IMG/VR virus record: IMGVR_UViG_3300020048_000093
Location: 1 to 64,000 of that record
DNA: 64,000 bases
Origin: a virus
Taxonomy: Duplodnaviria; Caudoviricetes
Direction: 5' to 3' (one strand)
The translations under genes were made by a program, and so were the position numbers. The notes beneath the pieces were generated by a model that was given only the letters and a program-made list of their open reading frames with translations, did not search any database and was not told the origin of the DNA. How positions within the stretch are numbered: position 1 is the first letter of the stretch; every line of letters begins with the position of its first letter. Shown here in pieces: positions 21,652 through 49,432 of the stretch.

Positions 21652-23121
21652 ATGATTTTGGTACGTGTAAATAAAGCAATGATCGATGCGTTGATGGAAA
21701 AGTCTCGCAAAGGGACGCATTTGGTCCCTGAAAAGAGAATAGTTACCCGTGACGGAAAGACCTTCCAGATGACTGTGTGGGTGGATCCCAGGGACAAAGC
21801 GGCACCGGCGCAGGGTGGTTTTGACTTTGATGAAAAACCCGTTGCAAAGAAGAATACCAAAACAGCTGCGGAAATGAATAAAGAAGTATCTGATAAACGA
21901 AAAAAGGACGCCTCCTATGAATATCGAGCGAAAGGCGATATGGTACAGGTAAGGAAGCCAGGTTCTTCTACATGGGACAATCTTGCACCTACAAAGGATG
22001 CCGTTACAGCAAAAAAGCTTTCGGAAAAAATGAATGATGATGACGCTTCAGAAGCGCAGATCGACGCAGGTGGGGAAGCCGCACGAGCTCAGGATGACTT
22101 CGCCGAACACATGATTGGCAAGGGAAATCTAAAATCTGGTAAACTAAAGGATATATCAGTATTGCTCGATAGGCAATTTGGTGTAGATTTGTTGCCAGAA
22201 GAGGTTTCTGATTATCTCAGCAAACACGGCATCAGTGATAAAGGTCTTTCAGTTGATATAGCCGCTTCGATAAGCAAGAAACTGAGATCAGACCTTGTTG
22301 GCTTGGCAGGTGGCGGACATACGGTACCAAAAGTTACAACGACCGAAAAAGCAAATCGTACGCGAAGTGAGATACTCAAGGAAGCAAGCTTAGCCTTGGA
22401 TGAAGTAAGAAATTTCCACTATCACGGAGACAAATTCAATACAACATACGAGTTGGCACGTGCAATTGGAAACGGTGAGATTGACACTGCATCCGCCTTG
22501 CATGAAGTTCGCGAAGCGTTCTCCATGATGACAAACCGCAAGCTGCACAATGGGAAGTTCCCAGATACTTACGCGATTGCAAACGCTATAGACGAATTGA
22601 AGAAACCAAGCAATGAAACCCTTGAACAGAAAAAGGTTAAAACTTCTGTAGAACCAGAAGTAACCTATGAAAAATATCATCATCACGGAGATGACGATGC
22701 AATGAACTACAAGGAAATGCCAAAGGATACGCCAAAAGAATCCGTCAAAAAAAACGAAAGCCTTCTTTCAAAGCTTGGGATCGGGCCAGTTACGGAAGCT
22801 GAAAATGAAGAATTTGAACAGTTTATGGTTTGGGAAAAGGAAAATAAATATCAAGCAAGGAATAGCAGCAGTCCGTATCAGGCAAGAAAGGACCTAAAAA
22901 AAATACAGGAGCTAATGGAGATACATCCTGTTGTTTTGATTCCTGTGATGGAAAAATTGTATGCGCAGGGGGTGAATTCCGACGCACTTGCGCCTTTCGT
23001 GAGTATAATTAAAAAAACGCGAGAGACAGGTAGTCCTTTTACGGTAGATAAGCCCATGAAATTCGGTATAGAAAAGTCTATCGGCCTGTTCGTCCAGGGT
23101 ATGATTAAGGGCAAAAAATAA
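21652..23121 (+). CDS. Head-region protein with the shared N-terminal LxK[SA]...WVDP tag
   Basis: LMEKSRKGTHLVPEKRIVTRDGKTFQMTVWVDP; remainder not recognisable. Confidence 0.7.
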   Translation: MILVRVNKAMIDALMEKSRKGTHLVPEKRIVTRDGKTFQMTVWVDPRDKAAPAQGGFDFDEKPVAKKNTKTAAEMNKEVSDKRKKDASYEYRAKGDMVQVRKPGSSTWDNLAPTKDAVTAKKLSEKMNDDDASEAQIDAGGEAARAQDDFAEHMIGKGNLKSGKLKDISVLLDRQFGVDLLPEEVSDYLSKHGISDKGLSVDIAASISKKLRSDLVGLAGGGHTVPKVTTTEKANRTRSEILKEASLALDEVRNFHYHGDKFNTTYELARAIGNGEIDTASALHEVREAFSMMTNRKLHNGKFPDTYAIANAIDELKKPSNETLEQKKVKTSVEPEVTYEKYHHHGDDDAMNYKEMPKDTPKESVKKNESLLSKLGIGPVTEAENEEFEQFMVWEKENKYQARNSSSPYQARKDLKKIQELMEIHPVVLIPVMEKLYAQGVNSDALAPFVSIIKKTRETGSPFTVDKPMKFGIEKSIGLFVQGMIKGKK

Positions 23122-23123
23122 GC

Positions 23124-24458
23124 ATGGAATATAAACTCACAGTCCAGAACGTCAACGATACCAACCGGCGACATAAATACCTGGCGGCGGTAGATTCTCT
23201 GGCCAAGGCCATGAAGGTACCGGTGTCGCTCAAGCCAAAGAAGTCCGACAAGGAAGAGAAATTCCCGTATCGTTCCTATCAGGATCTTGTGCAAAAGTGG
23301 GTTTATTACTATGCCGGTATGCTGGACCAGATATATGATACGGCTTGTGAGGTGTTTGACCTTCCAAAGATTCAGACATTCAGCAAGGCTGCGTATTCTG
23401 GAAAGCTCATGTACAAGGGCAAGATTCTATATCAGCCAGACACCGGATTGCCGATAACCAACAAACAGTGGAATGACTTCGTAAAGGCACTGGACCGGTA
23501 TCTTAATCAAGGGCTTGAGAATGCCGGAGACAGAATCGTTCTTGATTCGCAAGCCCTCGGGAAAATCCTTGATCGTATGCTCAAATACCAGTCATGGGGC
23601 GGGATAAAAAACACCAGATTGGAAGACATGCTTTACAAGAAACATAATTTTGACTATTTATCCGATGAAAGAAACTATCGCAAGGTGTTCGGGGTTCCGG
23701 ATTATGAGGCAGACCGACTGACCGTGGCAAAAGAGCATTGCGCCATGTATATTCGGGGTATTGAGGATCAAACCAGGACGGCGATAAAAAAGACTTTCAT
23801 AGCCGGAATAAAGGAGCGGAAGTCAAAAAGTGCCGTCTCCCAGGATTTGTTCGACAAGTTCGGATCATTGAATAAGGACTGGCAGCGGATAGTTGAAACG
23901 GAAACAAACGACAATTTGAACACCGGAATACTGTTATCAGAACGAACGGTAATGAAAGAAGGCGATAAGCTCTATTTCCAGCGCATTGAAATGAAGGATG
24001 AAATAACTTGCGATCACTGCAACCGGATAAACGGCATGGTGGTGTTATGGTCAGATACGGCTCTTGAAGACGAAAGAATTCAAGACCAATATGCTGACGT
24101 AGCGATATGGGAAGGAAAGACCCGCGTGGGACATGGATCGAAAGACGAATGGGTAGCGGCCGGCAGTCAGCATCCCTGGTGCAGGGGGCTATGGACAAAG
24201 TGGAATCAACCGGAAGAAGGCGAGACAATCAGCCTGCATGACGCGGCCATAGCAAAGATGAAAAGCCGTGAAGCAGCATGGGGAGCAGCGGTAAAACAGG
24301 CAACTTCCGAATTCAACAATAGCGGTACTAAGAACCCGGACGATACGACGGCCGGCTTCCGTGAACGGATCAACGAGCTTTACAATGCTTCGGGCGAAAA
24401 CGATAAGGGCAAGTGGGCGAAGGACTGGTTCAAGAATAACTGGCAAGGAGACGAATGA
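23124..24458 (+). CDS. Phage head morphogenesis (MuF/gpF-like minor capsid) protein
   Basis: KDWQRIVETET, CDHC...NG, HPWCRG; position after portal. Confidence 0.8.
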   Translation: MEYKLTVQNVNDTNRRHKYLAAVDSLAKAMKVPVSLKPKKSDKEEKFPYRSYQDLVQKWVYYYAGMLDQIYDTACEVFDLPKIQTFSKAAYSGKLMYKGKILYQPDTGLPITNKQWNDFVKALDRYLNQGLENAGDRIVLDSQALGKILDRMLKYQSWGGIKNTRLEDMLYKKHNFDYLSDERNYRKVFGVPDYEADRLTVAKEHCAMYIRGIEDQTRTAIKKTFIAGIKERKSKSAVSQDLFDKFGSLNKDWQRIVETETNDNLNTGILLSERTVMKEGDKLYFQRIEMKDEITCDHCNRINGMVVLWSDTALEDERIQDQYADVAIWEGKTRVGHGSKDEWVAAGSQHPWCRGLWTKWNQPEEGETISLHDAAIAKMKSREAAWGAAVKQATSEFNNSGTKNPDDTTAGFRERINELYNASGENDKGKWAKDWFKNNWQGDE

Positions 24459-27400
24459 TGAATGCATTCCAAAGACTAATGATACCGGTTCAAGATATGC
24501 TAGAAAAGGCTCGGCGATATAACCCGAAACTGGTACAGAGAACAATAACCGTTACGAATAAAGACGGAACAACATACACCAAGCGGGCATGGGTAGACCC
24601 TACCGAAAAGGACGCTGAAAAGCCGAAGAATGTACAGTTCGATCTTTTCGGAGGCGACGATGCCCCTATTCTCGCCGTTTCGGTGGAAAAAAAGGCCGAT
24701 AGCGGCACGGTGAATAACCGGACAGATACAGGAGAGGAATCGAACGATATCAAGAGCGTTCGGCAGCGTGTTTTCAATTCCATGAAAAGAGAAGGGTATA
24801 CTCAAAAAGAGGCGGATTACAGTACTGAATTCAAGAAACGGGTGTCAGATACTCTCAAAAAGAAAGCAGAAATCAGTGCCCGAAACAGGGAAAAAACCAA
24901 TGTTTTGCCCGTAAAAGGCCCAGAAACTACCCGTAAACAGGTGGAATTACCTGAAATTGAGGGCGAAAAACAAGCCGTTTACGATACCGTACATGAAACC
25001 CCGCCAAGCAACCGTGGTGATTTGGACGTTTCAATAGTTGATACCGACTTCAGGGATTATGGATCATGGTCCGGAAAAGGAAAGAACCTCAATCCAGCTG
25101 CACGAGGAAAGCTCAATCAAGAGGTTGCGGAATTACTTTTGAAAAGCCGGGATTCTCTCACAGAAGAGGACAAGGGAAAGATTCAGAAATATTCAGGCTT
25201 CGGCGGGGTGAAGGCAGCCGACGAGCGCGGGGTGCTTTATGACTTTTACACCTCTCCGCCTGTCGCAAAGATGGCATGGAAGATGCTGGACAAGATAGTT
25301 CCAGTCCAAGCAGGGGAATCGGTGCTTGAACCCTCGTGCGGATCGGGAGTGTTCTTTGACGTTACTCCTGCCGGCGTGGAGAAAACCGGCGTCGAGTTGG
25401 ATACCAGGACGGCCGCAGTTGCCTCTATCCTTCAGGAAGGCGCAAACATACATACCGGATCATTCGAGCAATTCAATATGCACAACACCAAGCGGTTTTC
25501 ACGGGTTATAGGCAATGCGCCTTTCGGGGACCGGTCGGTTACAACCTCATTCATGGATATGCCGGAAGAAAAAAGCCTTGATAAGTATTTTATATCTCGG
25601 TCAATTGACGCTCTTGTGGACGGCGGGTCAATGGGGCTTATTGTGCATCCGGGTGTGCTCGATGGGAAAAGCAACAGGGATTGGCGAGCCGAACTCCAAA
25701 AGAAGGGTCAGTTCATGGGAGCGGTACGGTTGCCGAACGGATCATTTAAGCATACACAGACCGGCGTGCAGCCGGATATGCTTTTTTTCCGCAAGTATCC
25801 CGAAGAGGTCCAGAAGCGACTCGATCAGCTCGATGAGTCCGGCCTGAAGGAAGCGGGTTTCTGGCACGAGGGATGGGCGGAAGGAACCTACTACGATGAA
25901 AACAAGACCCATATCCTCGGGGAGCTAAATGAGGGAGGTGGAAACTGGGGATCGGACGTTGTTGAAGGGGACCTTTCACTATCAGATATGGACAAGGCAA
26001 TAGCGACATTCAATCCAGAACCGGACAAAACAACCGCTGATTTGGACAAACTAAACAGCATGACGACAAAACTGGCCGGCGAAAATAAAAAAGTGGAATC
26101 CATGCTTACCGAATCAGAGGCCGAGGCGGTTGCCTGTAAAACACTTTCCGTTGGCATGACAAAGAGCATTGACGGAAAAGTCTACCGGCTCAATGAAAAC
26201 CATCGTTGGGAACTGGTAAAGGGAGCCGACGAAACAACTTCTGAAAAGCTGGAAAAAGTGAAAGCCATTGCCGAGAAGGTGAAGGCGATCCGGGAAGCGA
26301 TGCATAATGACGAACCGGTAGATGATCTCCAGAGGGAGGCCCGTACTCTGCTCCAGGACTATAAAGATGAGCATGGGACAAACCCGATGGATGACAAGGA
26401 TGTAAAGCGCCTGCTTACGGCCCATGCCTCACTTTCCGGAGTGTACGAGGGCCTGGTCGATATAGATGATGATATTCTCAACAAACAGAATGTATACGCC
26501 AAAGAGATTGATATTGTGGACGGCCATAATCCGGCCGTCACGGCCCTTCTTACCCTGCAGAAAAACATGCTGGAAGCAACACCTGCAAACATACAGAGTT
26601 ACTTTCCAAACGATATCGACGCGCTTATGAAGGAATTACAGGACAACAAAGACTGCTTCCTGACACCTGACGGAAGCTGGGAGCTGCGGGAAGACTTCAT
26701 TGCCGGTGACGCGTGGGTAAAAATTGATGCCCTGAAAGCCGCAATCGAGGAACACGATGGAGATAAATGGGTCAATGAGCGGGCAAAGTGGCAAGCGGGA
26801 ATTACCGATCTGGAAGCGGCAGTTGGCTGGACAAGCATCGAAGAAGCCGAATTTACGCCTCAATCTTCATGGATTCCTGAAGAAATCATAAATAAATGGG
26901 CCAAAGACCCGGACGGAATGGCTATTCAATATGCCCTGTCAGACAAGGTTCTTTCCCGGAACGAAGAGGGAAAGTGGGGCGTCAAGGGAACGAAAGACAA
27001 ATATATCCGTCCCAAAAACTGGCGGGATGAGGGTGAAACGATAGAAGCTGGAACTTGGTACCCATTGAATGACGAAATCGCTTATTTTCTCAATCTGCAA
27101 AAACAGCGATCAAAGAATATCGATACCGAAACGTATGACACCAACGCACGGGAAAACTTCAAGAACTGGGTAGCAAACAATCCGAATGTTCGGATGGAGC
27201 TCGAAGCACTGTTTAACCGTAAGTTCAATTGTGATATCGGTACGCCTACTAAAACCTATGCGGTAAAGATAGACGGTTGGAATCCGTCCGTTATCTTGGG
27301 CGGGCATCAGTGGCAGACGATCCACCACCTCTATCGCGCCGGGAAGGGTATTACGGCTCTAGGTACTGGCTTTGGCAAGACACTGGCTTCGGTTGGCCTT

Positions 27401-30190
27401 ATGGCCCTGCTTCGACAAGAAGGCAAGGTGAAGCGCCCTATGGTGCAGGTCCCTAACAATAAGGTCAAAGACTGGGTAAAGACGTTTGCAAAGGCCATGC
27501 CGGGCCTCAAAGTCGGATCCGTTGATCCTGAATCTGAAGGATACGGCAATCAAGTCAAGCGCTATAAAATGTACCAGGATCTTGCAAATGGCGATTACGA
27601 TGTAATAATCCTGCCTGAATCGTCGGCAACCGAAATTCAATTGAGTGAGGAAGAGGACGCCAGGATAACTTCGGACGTTGTATCTGCTCAGATTATGGAC
27701 AAGACTGCGGGGAAGAGTGACCGGAAGGTGGCAACCGCGAAAGAATCGGCTCTTGGAAAGATGCAGAACGGAAAAACAAACAAAACCATTTCGTTTGAGG
27801 ATCTTGGATGCGATGCGCTTTTCGTAGATGAGGCCCATAACTACAAAAATTTGTTCAGCAGCACGCTGTCCAGGGAAACAGGAATGAATGACGGTCGCCG
27901 TTCAGATCGCGCCATGAGTCTGTTCAAGAAAAGTGAGTTTATACGACATTCACATGATGGAAAAAACGTGTTCCTTTGCACGGCAACACCGCTTACGAAT
28001 TCGCCTCTCGAATACTACAATATGCTCATGCACGTAGCACCGGAAATGCTTACAAAGCTGTCGATAAACAATATCGATGACTTTATCAGGAATTTCGCCG
28101 ATATCGAAACGGGCATGAAGTGCGACTGGGGATCGGGAAAAGCCAAAGAAGGCCGGATACTGAAGGGATTCAAGAATCTCCGGTCCCTGCAAGATATGTT
28201 TTTCAAGTATACCGATCTTCAGAACGATTCAACAAAAATCGGTCTGGCAAAGCCGTCCGCAAACAATGTTCCCAATGTGATACCAATGCAGAAGGAGCAA
28301 ACGGAAGAATTGCGTGATATATCGGCCCAGCTTGAAGAATTCAAAAACGCAAGCAAAGACGAAAAGGCCGCAAAATATGAAGGAGAGAATTATCTTACCT
28401 TCTATTCCAGGATGCGGACCGCTTCACTCGATCTTGAGCTCTATGATCCGGTAAAGTACAAGGGGTGGAAAAACCCGAAGCTCGAAAAGCTTGCCCAGAA
28501 CGCAATGGACAGCTTTACAGCGACTTCAGGGGGGCAGGTGATATTCTGCGACCGGGTATTGTCCGGGGACGGCTCCATGAACATGCACGATAAGATCAAG
28601 GCCGAATTAGTTGCCAAAGGATTCAAGGAATCTGAAATTGTCGTAGTAAACGGGACAACAAAGACCGGAGGGGCAAAAAGTGATTCTGCCCTTGAGCACC
28701 TGGTATCCGAAGCGATAGACGGCTTCAATACGGGAAAGTACAAGGTTATAATCGGGACGACGCCTACGCTCGGGGAGGGTGTTAACCTTCAGAAAAATAG
28801 TGCAGCCCTCCATCATTTTGATATTCCATACCGTCCCTCAGACTTCATTCAGCGAAACGGTCGTATCGACCGTCAGGGAAACAAGCAGGGGGATGTTGCG
28901 CTGCACACGTACCTTTCGGCCGGCACAATCGACAATTACTCGGTCAATCTGGTCCAGAACAAGGCAAACTGGATCGACCAGCTCTTGAAAACGAAGTCGA
29001 ACGTGTTCATGAACCCGAATGATGACTCGTATGTTGATCCGGACGAATTGCTATTGGCCCTCACGGAAGAATGGGGAGACAAGGATAAGGCCGTAGATCG
29101 AAGAGCCGAAATGAACAAAATCAAGGCAGACAAGATTCAGGAAGCCAATCAAAACAAGGTTCATGACATGATGGGGGCATTGAGCCAGATGCGCGGTTCA
29201 ATAAATGGATATCAGGGGGACAAGGGAACGGTACAATATCAGAACCGGGTCAGGAAAATTCAAAGCATCGAAGATTCTCTCCGTAACAATACCGAATTCA
29301 AGAATCTCGATTTGCTTACAGAAAACCCTCCCGATTTTATCTATGACAAGAAAAAGAGGCGAGCATACCAGAAAGGCGATAAATTCATGCTCACGGATGG
29401 AATTTTTGAGGTGAAATCGATAAACCATAAAAATCAGAAAATGGTACTCGTGGGTCTTGATGGGGCAACCAGCACAGAATGGTCGGCCAGTGATGGTTTG
29501 TATGGAAACTATTCGTACAAAGGAAAGGCCAACGACGAAGAGATAAAGAAACTCCAGACGCTTTACTCCCAAAATGAATATGCCGAACAAACACCGGAAT
29601 TCAAGAAGGATAATTACAAACGGTATATGTCGTTTGTTAAAATCAGACCACAAGATTTAATTTTCGAGGCACGCGAGGATACTGAGGGAAAAATCCGTAT
29701 AGGACGGGTAAGCAGCTATACGCAGCGGGATCGGACACCGAGCTCGCTCATCAATCCGTATGAACCGGAAGGACGTTCCCGTATCGAAGCATACTTGAAG
29801 GGAAACGATCATGAAAACATGGATGCCTCTGCCGCGAGTGACCCGGTATTCAAAGAACTGGGGCTATCGGAAGGAATAAAAACGGCAGTAATAGCCGATT
29901 ATCATGCCAAACCGGAGTCGAAGTTTATCGATGCAGAAGTTGGTAGTACCTGGGTTAGTGCCAAATCGATAGCGGAGAAGATGAACGTTGCTCTTGGTAA
30001 TTCCGAAAATGACAAGGTACGGGAGTATGATATAAAGAACGTAGCAGAGATGCACCCTGACTACGAGACTGATTATGAACGAATCGGGCGTGATTATGAT
30101 TGGCGAATACGTCGTAAATCGGTAGAAAAGGCAATAAAATCTGGCTATCTAAAACCGCAAAAACTGCTTATAATGGGCATAAAGAGGTGA
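24455..30190 (+). CDS. DarB-like N6-adenine methyltransferase / SNF2 helicase fusion
   Basis: MTase motifs VLEPSCGSG and IGNAPF; helicase motifs GTGFGKT, FVDEAHNYKN, TATPLTN, GEGVNLQ, QRNGRIDRQGN; N-terminal shared tag. Confidence 0.9.
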   Translation: MMNAFQRLMIPVQDMLEKARRYNPKLVQRTITVTNKDGTTYTKRAWVDPTEKDAEKPKNVQFDLFGGDDAPILAVSVEKKADSGTVNNRTDTGEESNDIKSVRQRVFNSMKREGYTQKEADYSTEFKKRVSDTLKKKAEISARNREKTNVLPVKGPETTRKQVELPEIEGEKQAVYDTVHETPPSNRGDLDVSIVDTDFRDYGSWSGKGKNLNPAARGKLNQEVAELLLKSRDSLTEEDKGKIQKYSGFGGVKAADERGVLYDFYTSPPVAKMAWKMLDKIVPVQAGESVLEPSCGSGVFFDVTPAGVEKTGVELDTRTAAVASILQEGANIHTGSFEQFNMHNTKRFSRVIGNAPFGDRSVTTSFMDMPEEKSLDKYFISRSIDALVDGGSMGLIVHPGVLDGKSNRDWRAELQKKGQFMGAVRLPNGSFKHTQTGVQPDMLFFRKYPEEVQKRLDQLDESGLKEAGFWHEGWAEGTYYDENKTHILGELNEGGGNWGSDVVEGDLSLSDMDKAIATFNPEPDKTTADLDKLNSMTTKLAGENKKVESMLTESEAEAVACKTLSVGMTKSIDGKVYRLNENHRWELVKGADETTSEKLEKVKAIAEKVKAIREAMHNDEPVDDLQREARTLLQDYKDEHGTNPMDDKDVKRLLTAHASLSGVYEGLVDIDDDILNKQNVYAKEIDIVDGHNPAVTALLTLQKNMLEATPANIQSYFPNDIDALMKELQDNKDCFLTPDGSWELREDFIAGDAWVKIDALKAAIEEHDGDKWVNERAKWQAGITDLEAAVGWTSIEEAEFTPQSSWIPEEIINKWAKDPDGMAIQYALSDKVLSRNEEGKWGVKGTKDKYIRPKNWRDEGETIEAGTWYPLNDEIAYFLNLQKQRSKNIDTETYDTNARENFKNWVANNPNVRMELEALFNRKFNCDIGTPTKTYAVKIDGWNPSVILGGHQWQTIHHLYRAGKGITALGTGFGKTLASVGLMALLRQEGKVKRPMVQVPNNKVKDWVKTFAKAMPGLKVGSVDPESEGYGNQVKRYKMYQDLANGDYDVIILPESSATEIQLSEEEDARITSDVVSAQIMDKTAGKSDRKVATAKESALGKMQNGKTNKTISFEDLGCDALFVDEAHNYKNLFSSTLSRETGMNDGRRSDRAMSLFKKSEFIRHSHDGKNVFLCTATPLTNSPLEYYNMLMHVAPEMLTKLSINNIDDFIRNFADIETGMKCDWGSGKAKEGRILKGFKNLRSLQDMFFKYTDLQNDSTKIGLAKPSANNVPNVIPMQKEQTEELRDISAQLEEFKNASKDEKAAKYEGENYLTFYSRMRTASLDLELYDPVKYKGWKNPKLEKLAQNAMDSFTATSGGQVIFCDRVLSGDGSMNMHDKIKAELVAKGFKESEIVVVNGTTKTGGAKSDSALEHLVSEAIDGFNTGKYKVIIGTTPTLGEGVNLQKNSAALHHFDIPYRPSDFIQRNGRIDRQGNKQGDVALHTYLSAGTIDNYSVNLVQNKANWIDQLLKTKSNVFMNPNDDSYVDPDELLLALTEEWGDKDKAVDRRAEMNKIKADKIQEANQNKVHDMMGALSQMRGSINGYQGDKGTVQYQNRVRKIQSIEDSLRNNTEFKNLDLLTENPPDFIYDKKKRRAYQKGDKFMLTDGIFEVKSINHKNQKMVLVGLDGATSTEWSASDGLYGNYSYKGKANDEEIKKLQTLYSQNEYAEQTPEFKKDNYKRYMSFVKIRPQDLIFEAREDTEGKIRIGRVSSYTQRDRTPSSLINPYEPEGRSRIEAYLKGNDHENMDASAASDPVFKELGLSEGIKTAVIADYHAKPESKFIDAEVGSTWVSAKSIAEKMNVALGNSENDKVREYDIKNVAEMHPDYETDYERIGRDYDWRIRRKSVEKAIKSGYLKPQKLLIMGIKR

Positions 30191-39288: not shown

Positions 39289-42200
39289 ATGAGTTTTTTT
39301 ATGATTGAAGATTATTCGTATAATGATAGTGACCTGGCAAATTTGAGAAAATCAGGCGCTCTTAACCTTGAGGTGGGCGGGTATACCGAACTTTCCATGA
39401 GAGAATATTTTGCCATGCAAAAATCATTGAAGGTGGCAAATGAGTATATCCGGATGCAAAAAGGCATTAAAATACCGGCAGGCGGGCGATGGATCACTGT
39501 TCACCCGAACGGAGGAGACGAAAAAGGGACTCCACTGCTCATTCAGGAGACGGGAGAAAAAGGAACCGCGCACGTTATCGCTGGGGCCGGGGGAAAGCTC
39601 AATGGCCTGAAGCTCAACAAGATAAAAAGCAAAGAAGAGTATAAGGAAAAATCTGAACAGCGAAACGAGGAAAAGAAAAAGAAGAAACTCGAAGACCGCC
39701 TGGCAGAACAGGAAACTGTGTCACAGATGAGCTCTGAAAAGCGCAAGGAATATAAAGAAGGAAAGAAGGCCGCAAAAATAAACGCCAAAGAAACAGAGAG
39801 TAACGACAAAAAAGCACGAGCCGAGGCCGAACAAGAATTCGTAAACCACATGGCCGGCGTGATGGGTTGGGAGCAAGAAGAGATAGAAGAGGACTTTGCA
39901 GAACGCAGAAAAGCGATTTATCAGCAGCTTGAGGATTGCGATGACAAGGCACTTGAAAAAAAGCTGGGTAAAGAACTTGAACATATAAACAAAGCCGAGG
40001 AACGCGCAATTAAAAGTCAGCGTTCGAATTTTCTATCGGCATCAAAAGAAGCTATCAAACAGATTCAGCGGGAACTTCTTGTAGACTCCGAAATGAGGCA
40101 ACAGGTTGAAGCAGGGCTTGGTGGTTCATCCGGAGCCGAAGACGTTATACGTAAAGAAAACGCAGGAAACAGCAAAGGGTTCCAGGCCGAATACCGGGAC
40201 AATGCCGAGAAAAAAGGCGGCCTGGATAACAAAGCTCTTGAGACTGAAAAGAGAGAGGCCTTTGAGAAGCGCATGACTGAAATAGCACAAGAAAACCCGA
40301 ACCTTGCTGCCATGATCTCCGGTGGCATAAAAACCAACAAGGCCATTAACGATATAAAGAAAGACGTGTATACCAAAGAAGAGACCCCGATTACTCCAAT
40401 TTCAGAGGTAGATAAGAAAACCGAGTTACTAAAAAACTATCTTGAAATGAAAAAGAAGCTAGCCGATATTGATAAAAAGAACGAGCCAGGGGTCCAGATA
40501 AACCTTGAAGGAACTCCAGAAGAGGCCGAGGACTCTGTTGACGGGCTTGTTTATGGAAAGGGAGTTTCAATCGACTATGCCGAACTGCTAGACAATGAGC
40601 TTGAGGATGAAGCCGAACAGATAAAGACCGAACGACAGGCCGCCGTTCATTCGTCACTACTCGATACCATCGACAAAAATCCCGGAGGATCCGCGAAATG
40701 GATAGCGAACGGGAATTATTCCGGTTTCAGTTCAATCGCCCTTGCTGCCATGAAAACCGAAGGGATTGATCGTGATGCCGTGGATATTTTAGGCGTTGGC
40801 GCAAGCTCGAAGCTGGTTGCCATGATGGCCCGGCGCTCGATGACCAAAGAAGACTACCAGGACTTCTCCTATGGTATGCAGAAATATCACGAAGAGGTAA
40901 ACGAATCCATAGCAAAGGATGCGGTAGAAAAAGGGAAAGACCTTATAGCGCGGGCGGAATCTATCAAAGCGGAAATCGACGCCAATCCCGACGATCTGGC
41001 CGTGGCAAAAGAGCTGAATGAATCTCGGCTTTCCTATCTTGACGAGGCCAATAGGGTAGTCGGCCAGGCACTCGGGTCGCTTGAATCATCGGCAGCTATG
41101 GTTTTGGCTCTGAAGGATGGCAAGGACCCTGAATCGCTCGAAGTGAACCTCGGCGCTGTCTCGAACGAGGACGCGATCGTCAAGATGCACGCCCTTGGGC
41201 TCGAAAAGGGAGATTTTACCATCAACGCTGCCGGAGAAAACAAAGTCGTTACCATTACCGGAGTGGATAAACTGGTCAAGCCGGTTGATGCAGAAGAATT
41301 GCGTATCGAACAGGAAGTATCGGCAATCAAGGCCGGCGCAATGGACGAGGACGGGTGGCTTCCGGCCGGCCTGGTGGAACGAACCTCTGAAAGTTATGAG
41401 GATCCGGGTCCTGATGCGCAGTTACCGGTGGGCGATGTCGATAATCAGTCTCTTGGATTTGATGAAAACGGCGAAGTTAATGCAAAAGGGTATCACGATA
41501 CCGAAGAAGCTGCTCACAGGACGCTTGGAGAAATGCCTGAGGGGTCGATGGCATACAAGCCAATCAGCGATCTTACCTCATCTGAACAAACCGATCTACG
41601 GCGCTATTGGGAGAACAATATCTACAAGGGGAGCATGTCGGAAGCGACAGCCGGACAGGACTTTGCAGAAGGAAAAGGAATCTCACGTCAAGCGGCATGG
41701 TCAAAATTCCTGAAGGGAGAGAACGGAGGGAGCGAATCGGCAACCATGGCCGCAATTCAAAATGACCTGATTACCAATCACTCGACTGAAGATATGTTCG
41801 GAGAAAAAGACCTTCCGCCATTGGCAAGGGTAACTCCCGGTAAATATGAAACATATCGTGCCAATGTAACTGGCGCAAGAGAGTTGTTTGATGCAATTGC
41901 CGAATTGAATAATCCTGATACGGTAATCGACGCCAAAGAAGCTAAAAAAGAAAGCGATAAACTTGAAGCTGCATTGCCGAAAAAACTGGACGAATTGTAT
42001 TCCGCACAAATGAAGGATCATTACCTGAAGTTTATGTCAGGTCACACGGAGGATGAATTCAAGGCAGGAGAAACAAGACAGGAGCGTAGTCCGTGGGGAG
42101 AGTATGTTCGGATGCACGGGGACGTTGGAAAGGCACAAGAGGCCGTACAAGACCGCATACGGGGAGATTTCAACGATAAATTCATCAAGAATTATGGAAG

Positions 42201-44226
42201 AGTTACCGGGAAACGATTAAAAACACGTTCTGAGAAGATTCGGAATTCGCAGGATCATGTTCTCGGTATGCTCCACAAGGACGTTCGGGATTCCTATACG
42301 CAACGATACCAGAAGGAAATGGGCGAAGCGGGTGGAGAGCTTGCCAATCGGAATAACGGTAAATTTGCAGCCGGTTCATGGAAAGACAAGCTCAATGGTT
42401 ATCTGGAAGAAAAAAAGAAAGCTGATGCCCAGCAGGTTGATATGTTCGCGGACCCAGAGGATATCAAACAAGATGACGGGACGGAAATAAAGTCTATCGG
42501 AAAGCGTGCCGAGACGCAGCTTGCATCGATGTTGCCGCAGCTTGCACAAAATCAACTTCGAGGTCAGCACTTTAAGGTCAATACCATGACTTCAAAGGGC
42601 GAGCGGCAGCGGGCGATTAAAATGCTGGAATCGGCAAAGCGTATCAATCTGTCGTTCGGAACGGGAAAGGGAAAAACCATTATCTCAATCGGGGCTTTTA
42701 CAGACCTGAAAGCGCAAGGCAAGGCTAAAAGGGCAATTTTCGCAGTTCCCTCTGTCGTCCAAAGCCAATTTGGCAATGAGGTCAATGTGTTCTGTGAACC
42801 GGGAAAATTCAAGGTTCAGTCAAATCCCTCGCTCTCTCGGGACGAACGGATTGAAGCCATGAAAGAAGGCAAGAATGATATGGTGGTTTTCACTCACCAG
42901 TCGCTGCGGGATGATCTGGTTCACCTTATGGCCAAAAACAACAATAAAACCCCAGAAGCCATGAAAGAGCACTTCAATTCGCTTGGAGCAAAGGAGCGTA
43001 AGGAATTGCTCGGGGAAACGCTCAAAAAAGAAGGTATCAATTTTGATATGATGACTGTTGATGAGGCGCACTACACAACGAACCGGAAGGGAAAGGAAGA
43101 CACCACCCTGTCGAACGTCCTGGATGCCCTTAATCAGAACGTAACGTACTTCATGAACCAAACTGCTACTCCGGTCAAGAATGACGCGTCAGAGGCCTTT
43201 GACATGCTGCACAAGGTAGCTCCGGAAAAGTTTACTGACCGGAATGAGTTTATAAAGCGGTATGGGGTCGATGCGAGCTTCTCGAAAAAATCTCTTCAAC
43301 GGCTTATAAACAGGTACAATTATGCCAGTCAGACCGTAACCGGGACAAAGCGAATCGACAACAAGGAAACCGTCAAAATGGTTGGTTCTCAGGCAGCCGA
43401 GTATGATAAAGTCGAAACTATGTTCAGAAGGGCAAGCAAGGCGGATAGAGCAGGAACGGCCGACGTGGAAGCCATGAAATTTCTTTCTCCGAATTCCTTC
43501 AAGAATGTTCCCGAAGAGAAGCATGAAGAAATTGCCAAACGCCTGCAGCAAGCTTCTGGAACGATCAAGGAAGAGGCGTTGAACCGGGTAGTGAATCAAT
43601 ACGATTGGAAGAATAATGCAAAAGTCGCACGAACACTTGAGCTGGTAGAAGCAAAGAAGTACACCGAGGACAATGCGAAAACAGCAAGCAAGGCAGGAGG
43701 ACAGAAGCCGGGAGTCATATTTGCCCACAATATCCAGACGGTCGAGAACCTGAGACAGGCCATGACCGAAAAGGGGATGCGGGTGGGAATTATTCAGGGG
43801 AGCATGAGCGGTCAAGAAAAGGAAAAGGTAAAAGTGGGATTCAATCCTTCTGATCCAAAAGATCGTATTTTTGATGTGCTTCTCTGTTCCGACGCCGGGG
43901 CAACTGGTTTGAATCTGCAAAATGCCGGGTATCTTATGAATTTCGACCTTCCTCAAACATCCTGGGTGAAGCAGCAGCGCGAGGGTCGTATAGACCGCAT
44001 GGGCCAGGCTCACTCTGAAATAGAATACCATGATATCGTGACTGATACGGACCACGAAAAAAAGAAGTGGGAACGTATTCAACGGAAAAAGGCGCTGGGA
44101 GCAATATTCGAAGAGGATCCAGGCGTACTCGATGATACTGGTTTGGCCGCTACTATCGCCAATGTCAAAAAAGAACGGTACAATACCGGTACTGAACAAA
44201 CACGCGATGAAAAGAGGGCGGCATGA
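39289..44226 (+). CDS. Large SNF2-family helicase/ATPase (polyvalent-protein type)
   Basis: GTGKGKT, TVDEAH, TATPVKN, SDAGATGLNLQ, QQREGRIDRMGQ; long charged N-terminal region starting with RWITVHPNG. Confidence 0.88.
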   Translation: MSFFMIEDYSYNDSDLANLRKSGALNLEVGGYTELSMREYFAMQKSLKVANEYIRMQKGIKIPAGGRWITVHPNGGDEKGTPLLIQETGEKGTAHVIAGAGGKLNGLKLNKIKSKEEYKEKSEQRNEEKKKKKLEDRLAEQETVSQMSSEKRKEYKEGKKAAKINAKETESNDKKARAEAEQEFVNHMAGVMGWEQEEIEEDFAERRKAIYQQLEDCDDKALEKKLGKELEHINKAEERAIKSQRSNFLSASKEAIKQIQRELLVDSEMRQQVEAGLGGSSGAEDVIRKENAGNSKGFQAEYRDNAEKKGGLDNKALETEKREAFEKRMTEIAQENPNLAAMISGGIKTNKAINDIKKDVYTKEETPITPISEVDKKTELLKNYLEMKKKLADIDKKNEPGVQINLEGTPEEAEDSVDGLVYGKGVSIDYAELLDNELEDEAEQIKTERQAAVHSSLLDTIDKNPGGSAKWIANGNYSGFSSIALAAMKTEGIDRDAVDILGVGASSKLVAMMARRSMTKEDYQDFSYGMQKYHEEVNESIAKDAVEKGKDLIARAESIKAEIDANPDDLAVAKELNESRLSYLDEANRVVGQALGSLESSAAMVLALKDGKDPESLEVNLGAVSNEDAIVKMHALGLEKGDFTINAAGENKVVTITGVDKLVKPVDAEELRIEQEVSAIKAGAMDEDGWLPAGLVERTSESYEDPGPDAQLPVGDVDNQSLGFDENGEVNAKGYHDTEEAAHRTLGEMPEGSMAYKPISDLTSSEQTDLRRYWENNIYKGSMSEATAGQDFAEGKGISRQAAWSKFLKGENGGSESATMAAIQNDLITNHSTEDMFGEKDLPPLARVTPGKYETYRANVTGARELFDAIAELNNPDTVIDAKEAKKESDKLEAALPKKLDELYSAQMKDHYLKFMSGHTEDEFKAGETRQERSPWGEYVRMHGDVGKAQEAVQDRIRGDFNDKFIKNYGRVTGKRLKTRSEKIRNSQDHVLGMLHKDVRDSYTQRYQKEMGEAGGELANRNNGKFAAGSWKDKLNGYLEEKKKADAQQVDMFADPEDIKQDDGTEIKSIGKRAETQLASMLPQLAQNQLRGQHFKVNTMTSKGERQRAIKMLESAKRINLSFGTGKGKTIISIGAFTDLKAQGKAKRAIFAVPSVVQSQFGNEVNVFCEPGKFKVQSNPSLSRDERIEAMKEGKNDMVVFTHQSLRDDLVHLMAKNNNKTPEAMKEHFNSLGAKERKELLGETLKKEGINFDMMTVDEAHYTTNRKGKEDTTLSNVLDALNQNVTYFMNQTATPVKNDASEAFDMLHKVAPEKFTDRNEFIKRYGVDASFSKKSLQRLINRYNYASQTVTGTKRIDNKETVKMVGSQAAEYDKVETMFRRASKADRAGTADVEAMKFLSPNSFKNVPEEKHEEIAKRLQQASGTIKEEALNRVVNQYDWKNNAKVARTLELVEAKKYTEDNAKTASKAGGQKPGVIFAHNIQTVENLRQAMTEKGMRVGIIQGSMSGQEKEKVKVGFNPSDPKDRIFDVLLCSDAGATGLNLQNAGYLMNFDLPQTSWVKQQREGRIDRMGQAHSEIEYHDIVTDTDHEKKKWERIQRKKALGAIFEEDPGVLDDTGLAATIANVKKERYNTGTEQTRDEKRAA

Positions 44227-44516: not shown

Positions 44517-44560
44517 GGGTCACATGCCCTTAATCGGGTGTGTGGCCCTTTTTCTTTTTT
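44517..44560 (+). terminator. Strong intrinsic terminator directly upstream of the protease gene
   Basis: 13-bp stem GGGTCACATGCCC/GGGTGTGTGGCCC (with G-U pairs) followed by TTTTTCTTTTTT. Confidence 0.85.
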
Positions 44561-44578
44561 CGGTTCAACAGGAGACGC

Positions 44579-46027
44579 ATGAAAGATATTGCACTTGACG
44601 ACAGAATATACCTCGAACTTCGACTGTCTAAAGCCATAGAGACCGATGCCCATGGCAATTGGATTATAGAGGCCGAAGCATCGAATGAGAATCTTGACTT
44701 TGACGGACAGGTAGTTCTTCAGCGTGCATTATCAGGATCTAAGGATTATTTTCTCGCCAATGGCGTTATTTCTTACGATCATCGACATCTGCGAGCAGAC
44801 CCCGAAGACCCGAATTGGTCGCCTGAAAAATATATCATCGGCGAACCGATTGGTGTCACTACGCGTGGCGGCAGTACATTCGTAAAAGCAAAGCTGTATA
44901 AGTCAAACGAAGTCGCTCGGGAAATTGTAAAGAAGCTGCAGGATGGTTCTACCAGGATGAAAACGTCAGTCGGCGGTAAACGTCCTGAAGTTGTTTCGTC
45001 ATGGGACCAGAAGCTCGGTCGGGCGGTCGAAAAGGTGGTCCGGGTGCTTTGGGACGAACTGGCAATAACCTTCAAGCCGGTCAATCAAACGCTCGAACCA
45101 GTGGCATTATCAAGCGCCGCGTTCGTAAAATCCCTTGAAGCCGGCTTTGGAACCGATTCGGCAACGATGACTGGCGGACGGGCAATGATTCCTTCTGATC
45201 TGAAGACCGACGAAAGCAAGAAGGACATTTATGCACTGGCCATGGGCCTTACCTACAAAGATGTTCAGGATGAAAAACAGGCGACACAATTTCTTATAAA
45301 TCGAGGCTGCACGCCTGAAAAGGCCAAGGCGGTCATTCGATATGTAATTTCACAGAAAGATCCGATTAAGGAGGAAATTTCAATGGATGCAAATCTAATC
45401 AAGTCATTCGAAGAGTCAATTTTGACACTCGAAAAGAGCATGAAGAAACCCGCGAAGGGTGCTGTTGAACCTGATGGCGACGAAGACATGGGGAAGGGTT
45501 TTACCGAATTCCCGCCCAAAGACGCTATTGAAGGAAACGACGAACCCGATCCCGACGAGGAACTGGATGAAGACGGAAACCCCATTCAGAAACCAGCCAA
45601 ACGTGTTGAGAAATCGCTGTATAACGAGTTGAAGGACACCAGTTCCGACTTTCTCGATGTGACTCCGTTTCTCGATAACCTGGCGAAAAGTATTTCCCGC
45701 CGCATGAGCGCGATGGAAAAACAGGTAACTGAAATGGTCTCTTTCCAGAAATCCATGGGTGGTGCCCTTGTGGCTACCGGGAATCTGGTAAAAAGTCTTG
45801 GTGATGGTCCGATGCCTCGTCAGGCAACCGTGAACAAGCAGGAACGCTCGTTTACTGGATCTGATGGAAAAGTAACAACCATGACCAAATCGCAGATGCG
45901 GGATCAGGTACAGAAGGGTTTTGAAGCGGGTAAAATCTCGCTCCAGGATATGAGCAAAATGGAAGACAGAATCAACAAGGGAATCGCAATCAGCGAACCC
46001 GACATGATCTTCCTCAAGTCACTGTAA
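44579..46027 (+). CDS. Prohead protease fused to scaffold domain
   Basis: EAS.ENLDFDGQVV, SYDH, IGEP, TSVGG, ELAIT..PVN; RBS AGGAG before ATG 44579. Confidence 0.88.
   Translation: MKDIALDDRIYLELRLSKAIETDAHGNWIIEAEASNENLDFDGQVVLQRALSGSKDYFLANGVISYDHRHLRADPEDPNWSPEKYIIGEPIGVTTRGGSTFVKAKLYKSNEVAREIVKKLQDGSTRMKTSVGGKRPEVVSSWDQKLGRAVEKVVRVLWDELAITFKPVNQTLEPVALSSAAFVKSLEAGFGTDSATMTGGRAMIPSDLKTDESKKDIYALAMGLTYKDVQDEKQATQFLINRGCTPEKAKAVIRYVISQKDPIKEEISMDANLIKSFEESILTLEKSMKKPAKGAVEPDGDEDMGKGFTEFPPKDAIEGNDEPDPDEELDEDGNPIQKPAKRVEKSLYNELKDTSSDFLDVTPFLDNLAKSISRRMSAMEKQVTEMVSFQKSMGGALVATGNLVKSLGDGPMPRQATVNKQERSFTGSDGKVTTMTKSQMRDQVQKGFEAGKISLQDMSKMEDRINKGIAISEPDMIFLKSL
45383..46027 (+). CDS. Putative nested in-frame scaffold protein
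   Basis: Internal RBS AAGGAGGA at 45368-75, ATG 45383 in frame; acidic/helical with repeated LxKS. Confidence 0.6.
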   Translation: MDANLIKSFEESILTLEKSMKKPAKGAVEPDGDEDMGKGFTEFPPKDAIEGNDEPDPDEELDEDGNPIQKPAKRVEKSLYNELKDTSSDFLDVTPFLDNLAKSISRRMSAMEKQVTEMVSFQKSMGGALVATGNLVKSLGDGPMPRQATVNKQERSFTGSDGKVTTMTKSQMRDQVQKGFEAGKISLQDMSKMEDRINKGIAISEPDMIFLKSL

Positions 46028-46040: not shown

Positions 46041-47456
46041 ATGGATTTCCTACAACCGTCAAGCACGGGCGAAACAATGTTTGGCTCCGTTTCCGAAGGC
46101 GAGCTTCAGAAAGCTCTCTCTGCGGGATACGAAACCAACTCGGCTTCCATGACCGGGGGCCGTGCCCTCATTCCGGAAGATATTGAAATGAGCATGGTAA
46201 ACGCCATGGCTGCCAAGAAAGAGGACTTCAAACTCACCAACCTCTTGAAGACCCAGAAAGTAAATTCGACCGTGCACGAATATACTCGGCGTAACGACGC
46301 AGGCGATCATGGAAACATTTTCGTCAGCGAAGGTGGATCCGCTGGTGCCGGAAGCCAGACGCTCGAACGCGTTACCCGCCCTATGAAATACATGCAGAAC
46401 TACCGGGAAGTTACCTTGCAGATGCAGGTGGCACGGACACTCGAAGATGCAATGGCATCCGAAAAGCTTGCCGGAACACTTACCATCCTGAAGGGTCTCG
46501 AACAGGGAATGTTCCATGCGGATAGCGCGATTGTACCCGTACAGTTCGATTCGGTTCTCAAGCAGGTTAAATCAAACACTGCGAGACGCAACCTCATCGA
46601 TCTTCGCGGTAAGAAGATGACAGATACGGCCGGCGAAGACTCGATTACGGAAATTGCACGCCAGGTATTTGAGAACGGCGGAAGCCTCTCTCATACCTTC
46701 ATGCCCTCCATGATCGCCCAGGACTTCCAGCTGCTTGCCAGGAACCGCCTCCGCTTCGGTGCCGAAGACACCAAGGCAGCGATGGTAGCGATGGAATATC
46801 CGACAACCTTCTCCAGTCCCATAAAGATTGCGGGTAAAGATGCCGGTGCTGATAAAATGTTCCGCGTGAAGGGCGTTATTACCGCTTCCGGAGACGTCAC
46901 GCTCAGGCCTGATGCACCTACGTTTGCAAAAGCCGCACAGGCATTAACCGCTTCCCAGGGCCGAGGCTTTGATGCAACCACCGCAGGAACGTATTACTAC
47001 ACGGTTTTTGCCATTAACGAATTCGGTATTTCTGCCGGAGCAACAGCAACCTCCCAGGCAGTAACCACGGGCCAGGAAGTTCAGCTTACCATTACCCCTG
47101 GAGCGAAGAGAGGAACCGGATATATTATCTGCCGCTCGAAAGTAGGGGCATCAGATGGTACCGATTGCCGCGAGATGGTTCGTTGTGCGGATTCCGGTTC
47201 GGCTACTACCGTTTACAAAGACCAGAACGAAGACCTCCCCGGAACAGGCGAGATTCTGTACCTGTCCTACGATGCCGTTGAAATGACAGCACAGTTCGAC
47301 CAGTTCTTGCCGCTGATGAAGTTCGATCTCTTCCCGACGCGGGCAGCGGTCACTCCGTTCCTCATCGTTCTGTTCGGTACTCCCGATATCAAAGTGCCCT
47401 GGTATCATGGTGTCGTGAAGAACGTCGGCTACACGAGCGACGGCTTCTTTAACTAA
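46041..47456 (+). CDS. Major capsid protein (SPO1/Twort-like HK97 fold)
   Basis: RBS AAGGAGG; ELQKALSAGY, STVHEYTR, E..MFHADS..VP..FD; follows protease. Confidence 0.92.
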   Translation: MDFLQPSSTGETMFGSVSEGELQKALSAGYETNSASMTGGRALIPEDIEMSMVNAMAAKKEDFKLTNLLKTQKVNSTVHEYTRRNDAGDHGNIFVSEGGSAGAGSQTLERVTRPMKYMQNYREVTLQMQVARTLEDAMASEKLAGTLTILKGLEQGMFHADSAIVPVQFDSVLKQVKSNTARRNLIDLRGKKMTDTAGEDSITEIARQVFENGGSLSHTFMPSMIAQDFQLLARNRLRFGAEDTKAAMVAMEYPTTFSSPIKIAGKDAGADKMFRVKGVITASGDVTLRPDAPTFAKAAQALTASQGRGFDATTAGTYYYTVFAINEFGISAGATATSQAVTTGQEVQLTITPGAKRGTGYIICRSKVGASDGTDCREMVRCADSGSATTVYKDQNEDLPGTGEILYLSYDAVEMTAQFDQFLPLMKFDLFPTRAAVTPFLIVLFGTPDIKVPWYHGVVKNVGYTSDGFFN

Positions 47457-47704: not shown

Positions 47705-47714
47705 AGGTACATAC

Positions 47715-48827
47715 ATGATAAACGCCGTTGTAAACAATCATGACATTTTGCTAACTCTGACTGACGCTTCGACCTTACCCGGATTTTTAGGGTATCGACT
47801 GGAACGTAAAACAGAAACCGGTGCATGGTTTGTCTGGAACGGCGTTTTTTTTGCCTCAAGCGGGTATGCTCCTCTGCCGGGAATTCGCTTTTCCGATTAC
47901 GATATGGCAGATGGTCTTTATCAGTACCGATACGCCATAGACACGGGCGTTTTATCCGAATATCAGTATTCCGACTGGGTGAATATCAATGCCGGCCGTG
48001 TTGGATGGTCTTTTGAAAACTATACTCCGCCAGAAGGTCTTTTTGGCGAGGTTTTGACCGCCGACGACCTCCGATATACCTATCTTTGGGGCATCGACTT
48101 CCGTGCTTCAAATGGTGATATTTTCACCGATGCACAAGTAAGAACGAAAATAAACTCGGCAATTGATGAAATTGCACGGGCATTAAAGATAACAATCAAG
48201 AAAACACGAGTACACTGTCAGCCAGGTGCGGAACTAGTTGAGGGAATCGACTATGACGAGGCAGAAGATCCTTACGCATATAGACATGATAAGTGGCGAC
48301 GCTCTGGGCGTATTGCCTTGCGAAAACGGCCTATTATTTCAATATCTCGCTTTGATCTATACAGCATATCAGACCAGAAAATCCTTGATCTTATGACCTG
48401 GATAAGTGCGGATCACCGAAAGGGAATTATTAACTTTTTCCCGAAAGCAGGGGCCGATGGACAGTTTCGGATTGCTCCGGCTTCTATGTCGATGGGGATA
48501 TCACTGATAGGAGGTGATTATCCGCATGGGTACAAGATCGATTACGTCGCTGGATATGAAAACGCGAGCAAGGTTCCTTCAGACTTGCGTGATGTGATAG
48601 GTAAAGCTGCGGCATGTAAGTTGCTGAATATAATTGGAGATGGATTGATAGCCGGTTTTTCATCATCTTCATTATCAATGGATGGAGTTTCGGAAAGTTT
48701 TTCTTCTACACAATCGGCAACCAATGCGTATTTCGGCGCACGTATCCAGGTATATCTAAAGGATATTGAGTCTTATTTAAAGGAAAATCGGACAAAATTC
48801 GGCTCTTTCGTAATAGGAAGCATATAA
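47715..48827 (+). CDS. Head completion/adaptor protein with N-terminal FN3-like domain
   Basis: GYRLER..., YQYRY; LTADDLR..YLWG, GFSS.SLSMDGVSES.SSTQSA. Confidence 0.7.
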   Translation: MINAVVNNHDILLTLTDASTLPGFLGYRLERKTETGAWFVWNGVFFASSGYAPLPGIRFSDYDMADGLYQYRYAIDTGVLSEYQYSDWVNINAGRVGWSFENYTPPEGLFGEVLTADDLRYTYLWGIDFRASNGDIFTDAQVRTKINSAIDEIARALKITIKKTRVHCQPGAELVEGIDYDEAEDPYAYRHDKWRRSGRIALRKRPIISISRFDLYSISDQKILDLMTWISADHRKGIINFFPKAGADGQFRIAPASMSMGISLIGGDYPHGYKIDYVAGYENASKVPSDLRDVIGKAAACKLLNIIGDGLIAGFSSSSLSMDGVSESFSSTQSATNAYFGARIQVYLKDIESYLKENRTKFGSFVIGSI

Positions 48828-49432
48828 TGTCCGGAACCACAGTAGAGCTTATCAAGGCCAAAGACTACAGCAAGCTTGTACCTGAAAAAATCACCAGGGC
48901 CGATGGGTCCATCGCAACATACTGGGTATCGCCCGAGGATCGGAACGAAGGAAAACTGAAGGGTCAGCAGAATTTATTTGACGACGCACCAAAGACCGGT
49001 GGCCGTGGTTATTTCGATGAGCTCGACAAGGGCGCTGAAGACCTTCAGATAAAACCTTTGGTAAATAAAGTTGCCGCGTATGACCCTGAGCTCGCAAAGC
49101 GACTGGAAGCAAAATATAAAAACTATCATTTTGACCGGGACACGAAAGAAAAGGACATAGAAATAGACTTTCAGACGGCATGGTGCCTGAAGCGTATGGC
49201 GGATCGTCCGGGGGAAGCTAAGGACTTTCAGGCAGAGTATCATGAGAAGACGGACAAGATGGTATCCATGTTGAACAACCGGAAAAACGCCATGCTGAAG
49301 ATCAAGAAGGGGTCATCCGTGAGAGTTGGGCACGAAAATGGGATAATAGACGGATTTTCCAAACGAGGCTTCCCTATGGTACGCGTAGGGGCAATATCAC
49401 GTCCTTTATTCCATGAGGAACTTACGTTATGA
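48827..49432 (+). CDS. Hypothetical protein with the shared N-terminal tag
   Basis: ELIKAKDYSKLVPEKITRADGSIATYWVSP...QQNLFD. Confidence 0.7.
   Translation: MSGTTVELIKAKDYSKLVPEKITRADGSIATYWVSPEDRNEGKLKGQQNLFDDAPKTGGRGYFDELDKGAEDLQIKPLVNKVAAYDPELAKRLEAKYKNYHFDRDTKEKDIEIDFQTAWCLKRMADRPGEAKDFQAEYHEKTDKMVSMLNNRKNAMLKIKKGSSVRVGHENGIIDGFSKRGFPMVRVGAISRPLFHEELTL

Follow-up and report, generated by a model that had tools for sequence, protein, structure and literature searches.

A shared N-terminal module on five unrelated proteins encoded among the head genes of a tailed phage, and its possible role as an address label for capsid cargo

How tailed phages select the proteins that travel inside their heads has been worked out closely in only a handful of systems, namely the internal proteins of T4 and DarB of P1. 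The question is raised by the late region of a virus (Duplodnaviria; Caudoviricetes) whose 77,744-bp genome is IMG/VR record IMGVR_UViG_3300020048_000093, and of which the first 64 kb (positions 1 to 64,000, G+C 46%; hereafter the window) were analyzed. Five proteins encoded there between positions 21652 and 49432 begin with the same module of approximately 50 residues, here called the tag, consisting of a hydrophobic stretch, the motif L-x-K-[AS] and a basic β-hairpin that ends in W-V-x-P. What does this module do for proteins that have nothing else in common? The explanation that we rank first, and to which we give about even chances, is that it acts as a composite address label for head cargo, combining address, release and retention. 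The sequence-defined shared tag is what is new here; the principle is known from T4, P1 and the polyvalent proteins.

One module on five unrelated proteins

The original prediction, made from the letters of this DNA and its open reading frames (ORFs), held that the five proteins share an N-terminal signature on unrelated bodies. The translations beginning at 21652, 24455, 30604, 32259 and 48827 are as it quoted them, and both halves of the claim are borne out by comparison. Alignment of the five N-termini over approximately 50 residues (MAFFT) leaves K, L, G, W, V and P invariant at pairwise identities of 29–39%. Searched against all six reading frames of the window and of the whole genome, a profile made from them hits five places and no others. 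Profiles of four copies each recovered the omitted fifth at E-values of 1.1e-12, 1.9e-14, 2.3e-10, 1.8e-12 and 7.6e-5, with the best unrelated frame at 0.3 or worse. Behind the tag, BLASTP detects no similarity among the five bodies (best E-value 0.02, for a short stretch right after the tag).

The tagged genes all lie on the + strand. Tag 1 (21652–21831) heads a protein of 489 residues (gene 21652–23121) whose body has no assignment and gave no usable match in an ESM Atlas search. Tag 2 (24455–24649) precedes a DarB-like N6-methylase joined to an SNF2 helicase (1911 residues, gene 24455–30190), and tag 3 (30604–30774) a zeta-toxin-type kinase (gene 30604–31935, with a longer ORF from 30571). 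The carrier of tag 4 (32259–32420) is a protein of 708 residues (gene 32259–34385, with a longer ORF from 32211) that had been described as an LPD1-pyrophosphatase; its C-terminal InPase domain is confirmed, and LPD1, which is present in tag-bearing relatives, has no Pfam match in it at E ≤ 0.01. Tag 5 (48827–48979) begins a protein of 201 residues (gene 48827–49432). As predicted, four of the five, tags 1–4, lie between the portal gene (19930–21633) and the gene for a fused prohead protease and scaffold (44540–46027), while tag 5 follows the major capsid gene (46041–47456). The zeta and InPase proteins, and many of their relatives, also have in common a short G-x-x-V-x-F stretch behind the tag and linker (approximately 30850–30900 and 32480–32530 in the window; BLASTP E-value 0.02 for the zeta–InPase pair), which may be a second small common domain.

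A structural model of the tag, predicted with AlphaFold from 27 aligned copies, comprises a short helix over L-E-K-A, where a strand had been anticipated, followed by a two-stranded hairpin with a predicted local distance difference test (pLDDT) score of 81–86; outside these elements the model is uncertain. The hairpin carries a mean net charge of +5.3 over approximately 32 residues. A Foldseek search of the model against the PDB returned nothing at E ≤ 0.001. The tags likewise have no match in Pfam at E ≤ 10 or in NCBIfam, and their profile has none among PDB sequences at E ≤ 1, in agreement with the expectation that the tag had not been defined as a family. From the Pfam result it follows that the tag is none of the LPDs held in Pfam, to which this comparison extends. 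It also forms a minor portion of the longer profiles of several PHROG families, among them phrog_1917 ('virion structural protein'), phrog_25452, 23829, 27103 and 26588.

A profile search of 1.84 billion representative proteins matched 209 clusters at E ≤ 1e-3, 33 of them at E ≤ 1e-10. Among 158 tag instances, 98 (62%) start within the first 40 residues, 14 at residues 41–100 and 46 (∼29%) beyond residue 100, so that the description of the tag as an N-terminal module holds for the majority and not for the internal copies, which sit at module boundaries of fused polyvalent proteins with up to three copies per protein. Pfam matches on 40 tag-bearing proteins comprise InPase (12), DUF5661 (11), LPD1 (5), MuF_C (4), ART-PolyVal (3), RelA_SpoT (2) and DUF6582 (2), and the same 40 proteins also include zeta, RadC, cupin, S-adenosylmethionine lyase and methylase plus SNF2 cargo; these are hallmark domains of phage-type polyvalent proteins. 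Cutting 148 proteins at their tags yields 178 cargo modules in 75 BLAST clusters, which upholds the proposal of a portable tag on diverse enzymes.

Could the shared stretch be a functionless scar or linker left by recombination during cassette shuffling? Cargo is visibly shuffled at tag points among the relatives described below, as such a scar would have it. However, the protein motif has been kept although the tag-coding DNA is only 47–60% identical among the copies, and the same residues are invariant in 27 diverse copies and across the 209 clusters. Invariant residues in diverged DNA indicate purifying selection on the peptide, and the DNA is too diverged to drive homologous recombination. 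We therefore rank this explanation last and regard it as highly improbable. The same range of DNA identity marks the tags as old copies held at the protein level, and a recent duplication within the genome was rejected on this ground.

The lysine motif and what a cut would leave

The lysine of the tag is one of only three residues invariant among 27 diverse tags. Lysine followed by serine or alanine, with a hydrophobic residue at position −2, is the substrate pattern of the HK97 type and, as a pattern match only, occurs in the capsid protein as well as in every one of the five tags. Cleavage of the HK97 capsid protein at K103/S104 is known from experiment (PMC10275583). This site reads F-N-K-S-L and fits the motif [LIVMF]-x-K-[SA], of which three more copies are found in the HK97 scaffolding domain.

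In the window, all six untagged head proteins have [LIVMF]-x-K-[SA] among their first 45 residues, and none of 16 other proteins does. The six, all encoded on the + strand, are the portal (residues 15–18), the MuF or SPP1 gp7-like minor head protein (23124–24458, 444 residues; motif at residues 26–29), the Ulx-like protein (30194–30577), an SNF2-type helicase (39289–44226, 1645 residues; K-S motifs at residues 19–22 and 43–46), the protease and the capsid protein. The scaffold half of the protease protein contains 8 such sites, where shuffled sequences lead one to expect 0.92 (p ≤ 5e-5). The capsid protein has the motif as L22-x-K24-A25-L26; these four residues do not vary among four capsid proteins as little as 27% identical, and they predict a propeptide of 24 residues; the motif sites of MuF, protease and helicase are conserved in the related genome G001. 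The pattern extends to the cultured Bordetella phage PHB04 (L014, NC_047861), which has the order portal-DarB-Ulx-helicase-protease-capsid and no hairpin tag. There it is found at the capsid N-terminus and seven times in the scaffold, and the DarB-like protein, the helicase, an HD hydrolase and another small protein have it at their extreme N-termini; four PHB04 cargo-slot proteins begin with 4–7 hydrophobic residues and then K-A. PHB04 is a tractable system for the cleavage motif. Taken together, the motif is distributed as expected of a prohead-protease site, and it is from this distribution that cleavage is predicted.

The protease itself, the N-terminal half of the fused protein, is assigned through phrog_1028 (E-value 1.6e-18). 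The closest PDB neighbour of its structural model is T4 gp21 (Foldseek E-value 0.03), a match that is merely supportive because the model is poor (pLDDT 56). The resemblance to HK97 includes the joining of protease and scaffolding function, which is seen in the window too. Unlike its HK97 counterpart, the window protease has no sequence match in Pfam or the PDB, and the specificity ascribed to it derives from where the motif occurs. Residues 193–222 of the protease-scaffold (45116–45205) repeat capsid residues 20–49 (46098–46187) with approximately 59% identity, covering the K-[SA] site and the predicted mature capsid N-terminus. The pair is kept in all relatives, and imitation of the capsid N-arm may be how the protease gains entry to the shell. 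The tag-1 protein, the DarB-like protein, the portal and the protease-scaffold also have the K-[SA] pattern 2–21 residues from their C-terminal ends, which suggests trimming at this end too.

The predicted cuts fall after K17 in tag 1 (between 21702 and 21703), K18 in tag 2 (24508 and 24509), K27 in tag 3 (30684 and 30685) and K10 in both tag 4 (32288 and 32289) and tag 5 (48856 and 48857). Cleavage at these positions would remove just the 10–27 leading residues, so that the hairpin (ending at 21789, 24601 and 32375 in tags 1, 2 and 4, respectively) and any motif behind it would stay on the mature cargo. The earlier proposal that the tag is clipped at K/[SA] is therefore consistent with the motif distribution as regards the site, and inconsistent with the predicted cuts as regards removal of the whole tag.

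If the module is a composite address label, its two parts would act in succession. The first 10–27 residues, the hydrophobic stretch ending in L-x-K-[AS], would be a propeptide recognized by the scaffold-fused prohead protease, and would keep the protein in the assembling prohead until it is cut after the invariant lysine. The following ∼30 residues, the strongly basic two-stranded hairpin with its W-V-x-P end, would be retained on the mature cargo and may bind it to the acidic scaffold and later to the DNA, so that the enzyme leaves the head with the genome. Each cargo module would have its own label, and fused polyproteins with internal labels would be cut apart by the same protease.

The internal copies raise a different possibility, that the module is mainly a processing cassette, a protease recognition element for cutting polyproteins, whose N-terminal copies are leftovers of gene splitting and carry no capsid address. 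Internal copies do lie exactly at module boundaries, the same modules are found split or fused among relatives, the lysine is invariant and no zincin metallopeptidase was matched in these proteins. Further motif sites occur at domain borders, including the one before the InPase domain: an L-L-K-S site at approximately 33939–33950 (residues 577–580 of the ORF from 32211) marks the exact border between the N-terminal body and this domain, which is also the point at which the gene is split in the relative G005 and the end of the G001 homologue. A cassette for cutting would, however, have little need of a hairpin of 30 residues, given that a four-residue site suffices in the scaffold and at other positions of these proteins, and 62% of the copies are N-terminal, where there is nothing to separate. 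We consider a pure processing role unlikely and rank it third.

The sequence behind the hairpin has to be considered as well. The pattern Q-x-[DSGN]-[LMIF]-F is found within 45 residues after the hairpin in 35 of the 158 instances compared with 2% of random windows, an approximately 11-fold enrichment. It lies in an acidic linker, 6–24 residues past the hairpin, and is often doubled in other genomes. Four of the five window tags have a motif of this kind: Q-F-D-L-F in tag 2 (24635–24649) and tag 4 (32406–32420), Q-Q-N-L-F in tag 5 (48965–48979) and the variant Q-G-G-F-D-F-D in tag 1 (21811–21831), with none in tag 3. The bacterial sliding-clamp-binding consensus is Q-L-[SD]-L-F, and the window motifs resemble this pentapeptide at the level of sequence only.

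Loading and cleavage may accordingly be the work of the short propeptide alone, with the hairpin and Q-x-D-L-F serving host-directed localization after injection, to DNA and/or the sliding clamp. Both elements follow the predicted cut and would stay on the cargo, the basic charge of the hairpin is high, the enriched motif resembles the clamp consensus, and relatives that lack the hairpin keep the propeptide. The closest fold neighbours of the tag model, although not significant (E-value ∼0.5), are the RNA-binding hairpins of ribosomal protein S7. The motif is present, however, on only about a quarter of tags and is absent from tag 3; an address for DNA or clamp makes little sense for a pyrophosphatase or for a zeta kinase, whose substrate is a cell-wall precursor; and the module is confined to one capsid lineage, as a general host-targeting domain need not be. 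This explanation is ranked second, and we regard it as rather doubtful.

Several observations weigh against the composite label. The untagged helicase, Ulx, MuF and portal proteins, the cargo of relatives with ∼45% identical capsids and the PHB04 proteins have only a short hydrophobic peptide and K-[SA]. In those relatives and in PHB04, large cargo proteins start with hydrophobic residues followed by K-[SA] and have no hairpin. As hairpin-less proteins keep the propeptide, the hairpin may be dispensable for loading, and a retained hairpin with Q-F-D-L-F would suit a post-injection role no less well. The motif statistics are post hoc, having been computed once the pattern was known. The tag model is of moderate overall quality (pLDDT 68) and places K-[AS] within a predicted helix, and the N-terminus of P1 DarB does not match the tag profile. 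The lineage is known from sequence alone, from which we infer packaging and cleavage, and with them binding and ejection. A complex prediction for the tag (27 alignment rows) with the Ulx-like protein (29 rows) scored 0.01 against a mark of 0.32 and is evidence neither way.

Since the hairpin-less relatives keep the peptide, it is a T4-like N-terminal peptide, predicted to be cleavable, that is conserved most widely. To this the lineage has added the hairpin, whose job could be retention in the head through the acidic scaffold or DNA, co-ejection, or host targeting. A stronger form of the composite label, which we put forward tentatively and hold to be less probable than the label as such, is that the module is a self-contained, transferable loading-and-release label. 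Any carrier would be drawn into the prohead through the protease-scaffold, freed after the invariant lysine and carried out on its basic hairpin, with Q-x-D-L-F steering some cargo to the host clamp. If true, this would make it the first capsid address of a phage lineage to be defined by sequence and shared by multiple clients, and nature would have provided a design for programmable protein delivery.

Linkage of the tag to one head type

The genomic context of the tags was read from ten related records, and 80 IMG/VR loci with related capsid proteins were fetched, of which 45 whole records were searched with the 27-row tag profile. All eight records with a capsid at least 53% identical to that of the window carry tags, 1–7 each, compared with none of the 37 whose capsids are 26–46% identical (E ≤ 1e-3). 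The original prediction had suggested a profile of the five N-termini as a means of finding cargo diversity and linkage to this capsid type, and both are found. Wherever DNA of these relatives was read, the tags lie between the portal and the conserved helicase or right after the capsid gene. The same layout and gene order, with tags, recur in a ninth relative above this capsid threshold, whose contig belongs to a Spirochaetia-class genome, and in a distant phage (portal 29% and capsid 28% identical) three tagged proteins are encoded next to the portal. The tag was found in four of 301 genomes of the bacterial class to which a metagenome-assembled genome (MAG) with a 79%-identical capsid gene belongs; the context of one was read and is a related phage region. 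Within the data searchable, the tag was not seen outside such head-gene neighbourhoods.

Searches elsewhere gave little. The region, tag 2 and the tag-1 protein had no match by megablast and tblastn in 50,697 phage records, and neither the tag alone in viral contigs nor the protein P0013 in genome contigs returned anything confirmable. The only homologue seen in a cultured phage is gp045 of Bacillus phage vB_BsuM-Goe3 (Goe3; L125:5722–6606, 294 residues), which has a tag-like K-S and hairpin at residues 93–139 (∼22 bits), follows the large terminase directly and belongs to phrog_1917, annotated as a family of virion structural proteins. Virion proteomics of PHB04, Mecenats66, Goe3 and Thurquoise was looked for in the literature and none was found. 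Felix O1 proved uninformative for comparison, having another protease type and an unprocessed coat.

The relatives share a conserved backbone of terminase, portal, MuF, Ulx, large helicase, protease-scaffold and capsid, and the portal-to-helicase stretch varies among them. The 1645-residue helicase, kept in all relatives, marks the downstream border of this variable cargo slot, and the portal its upstream border. Some relatives have a DarB-like gene, and G001, G006 and G008 lack it; in G001 its place is taken by a protein of 1500 residues with three tags. In G004 one ORF contains the window InPase protein as its residues 571–1281, the tag being at residue 577; in G005 the protein is split into two genes with an N-terminal tag on each. 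The zeta protein of G005 has 200 additional residues ahead of its tag. These split and fused forms imply a separate label for every cargo unit, in single and in fused genes alike. The tag-5 gene is absent from G001 and G006 and is thus accessory.

Comparison with known systems and neighbouring genes

A parallel in function is found in T4, where an N-terminal capsid-targeting signal of internal proteins has been proven and is portable to foreign proteins (PMC9024508). In IPIII and Alt of T4, a short N-terminal peptide on unrelated internal head proteins ends at a prohead-protease site and is removed on maturation, and the window likewise has an N-terminal module, with a predicted site, on several unrelated proteins encoded among head genes. 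The T4 signal is approximately 10 residues long and is cut after Glu by gp21, whereas the predicted cut here is after Lys, as in HK97. The present module is set apart from T4, by description, by the basic hairpin of ∼30 residues that follows and would be retained, and by its internal occurrence in polyproteins.

In P1, the first 30 residues of DarB are enough to load a reporter into heads, Ulx aids DarB loading, and the authors report that BLAST shows no consensus signal among the Dar proteins (PMC9024508). A P1 Dar-type arrangement is present in the window, where the DarB-like gene and the adjacent Ulx-like gene, assigned through matches to phrog_11801/10089 and phrog_1629, respectively, follow the portal, and the tag lies where the packaging signal of P1 DarB is located. 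The arrangement recurs in PHB04 and in relatives, and the Ulx-like gene adjoins tagged proteins even in relatives without DarB. Unlike in P1, 4–7 proteins per phage have one signal in common, and a homologue of DarA/Hdf was not found; on residues 1–80 of P1 DarB the tag profiles reach scores of −1 to −4 bits. DarA-Hdf of P1 is located on the inner capsid wall, in contact with DNA (PMC12810830), and offers a precedent for the proposed retention step.

Polyvalent proteins have already been published as head-packed, injected effectors (Iyer et al. 2017, PMC5512222). The tagged proteins have the same InPase, LPD1, MuF-C/PBECR, ART and RelA/SpoT domains and methylase-SNF2 dyad, and the window encodes disparate enzymatic domains next to the portal and terminase packaging genes, the neighbourhood for which DNA-linked delivery was proposed. 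Iyer et al. propose processing by a zincin metallopeptidase and name no common N-terminal address (PMC5512222). The tagged proteins differ in that each unit bears a copy of one recurring module, with a site of the prohead-protease type, and in that the MPTase family is absent from the Pfam matches of the window proteins and of the 40 tag-bearing proteins. This suggests that the prohead protease, and not a dedicated metallopeptidase, processes polyvalent proteins here.

MuF toxins, which occupy the same genomic slot, and encapsulin cargo-loading peptides also bring diverse enzymes into an HK97-fold shell through a shared portable element. In contrast to MuF toxins, the cargo here is encoded apart from MuF (a gene of its own, 444 residues), and the MuF N-domain is absent from every tagged window protein. 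In contrast to the C-terminal cargo-loading peptides of encapsulins, the tag is N-terminal and structured, and its binding to the shell is hypothetical.

A single recognizable module across the lineage, with natural split and fused variants and a predicted cut site, would make the injected phage proteins readable from sequence, at least in this lineage, and the tag is a compact candidate for loading foreign proteins into capsids.

The remaining genes of the late region frame this arrangement. The small terminase (17386) and large terminase (18331) genes precede the portal, and a block of small genes separates the InPase protein from the SNF2 helicase. A protein of 370 residues (47715) lies between the capsid and tag-5 genes, and tail genes, the sheath among them, begin at 52307. 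The host of the lineage is probably a spirochaete, a weak hint provided by the 79%-identical capsid gene (L108) of a Rectinemataceae MAG, on a contig of 3.3 kb, and by a Ulx homologue (P0192) in a Spirochaetia MAG. In two relatives, G003 (L099/L100) and G006 (L105), the MuF-like gene encodes 776 residues compared with the usual ∼430, with approximately 350 residues inserted at the position equivalent to residue 353.

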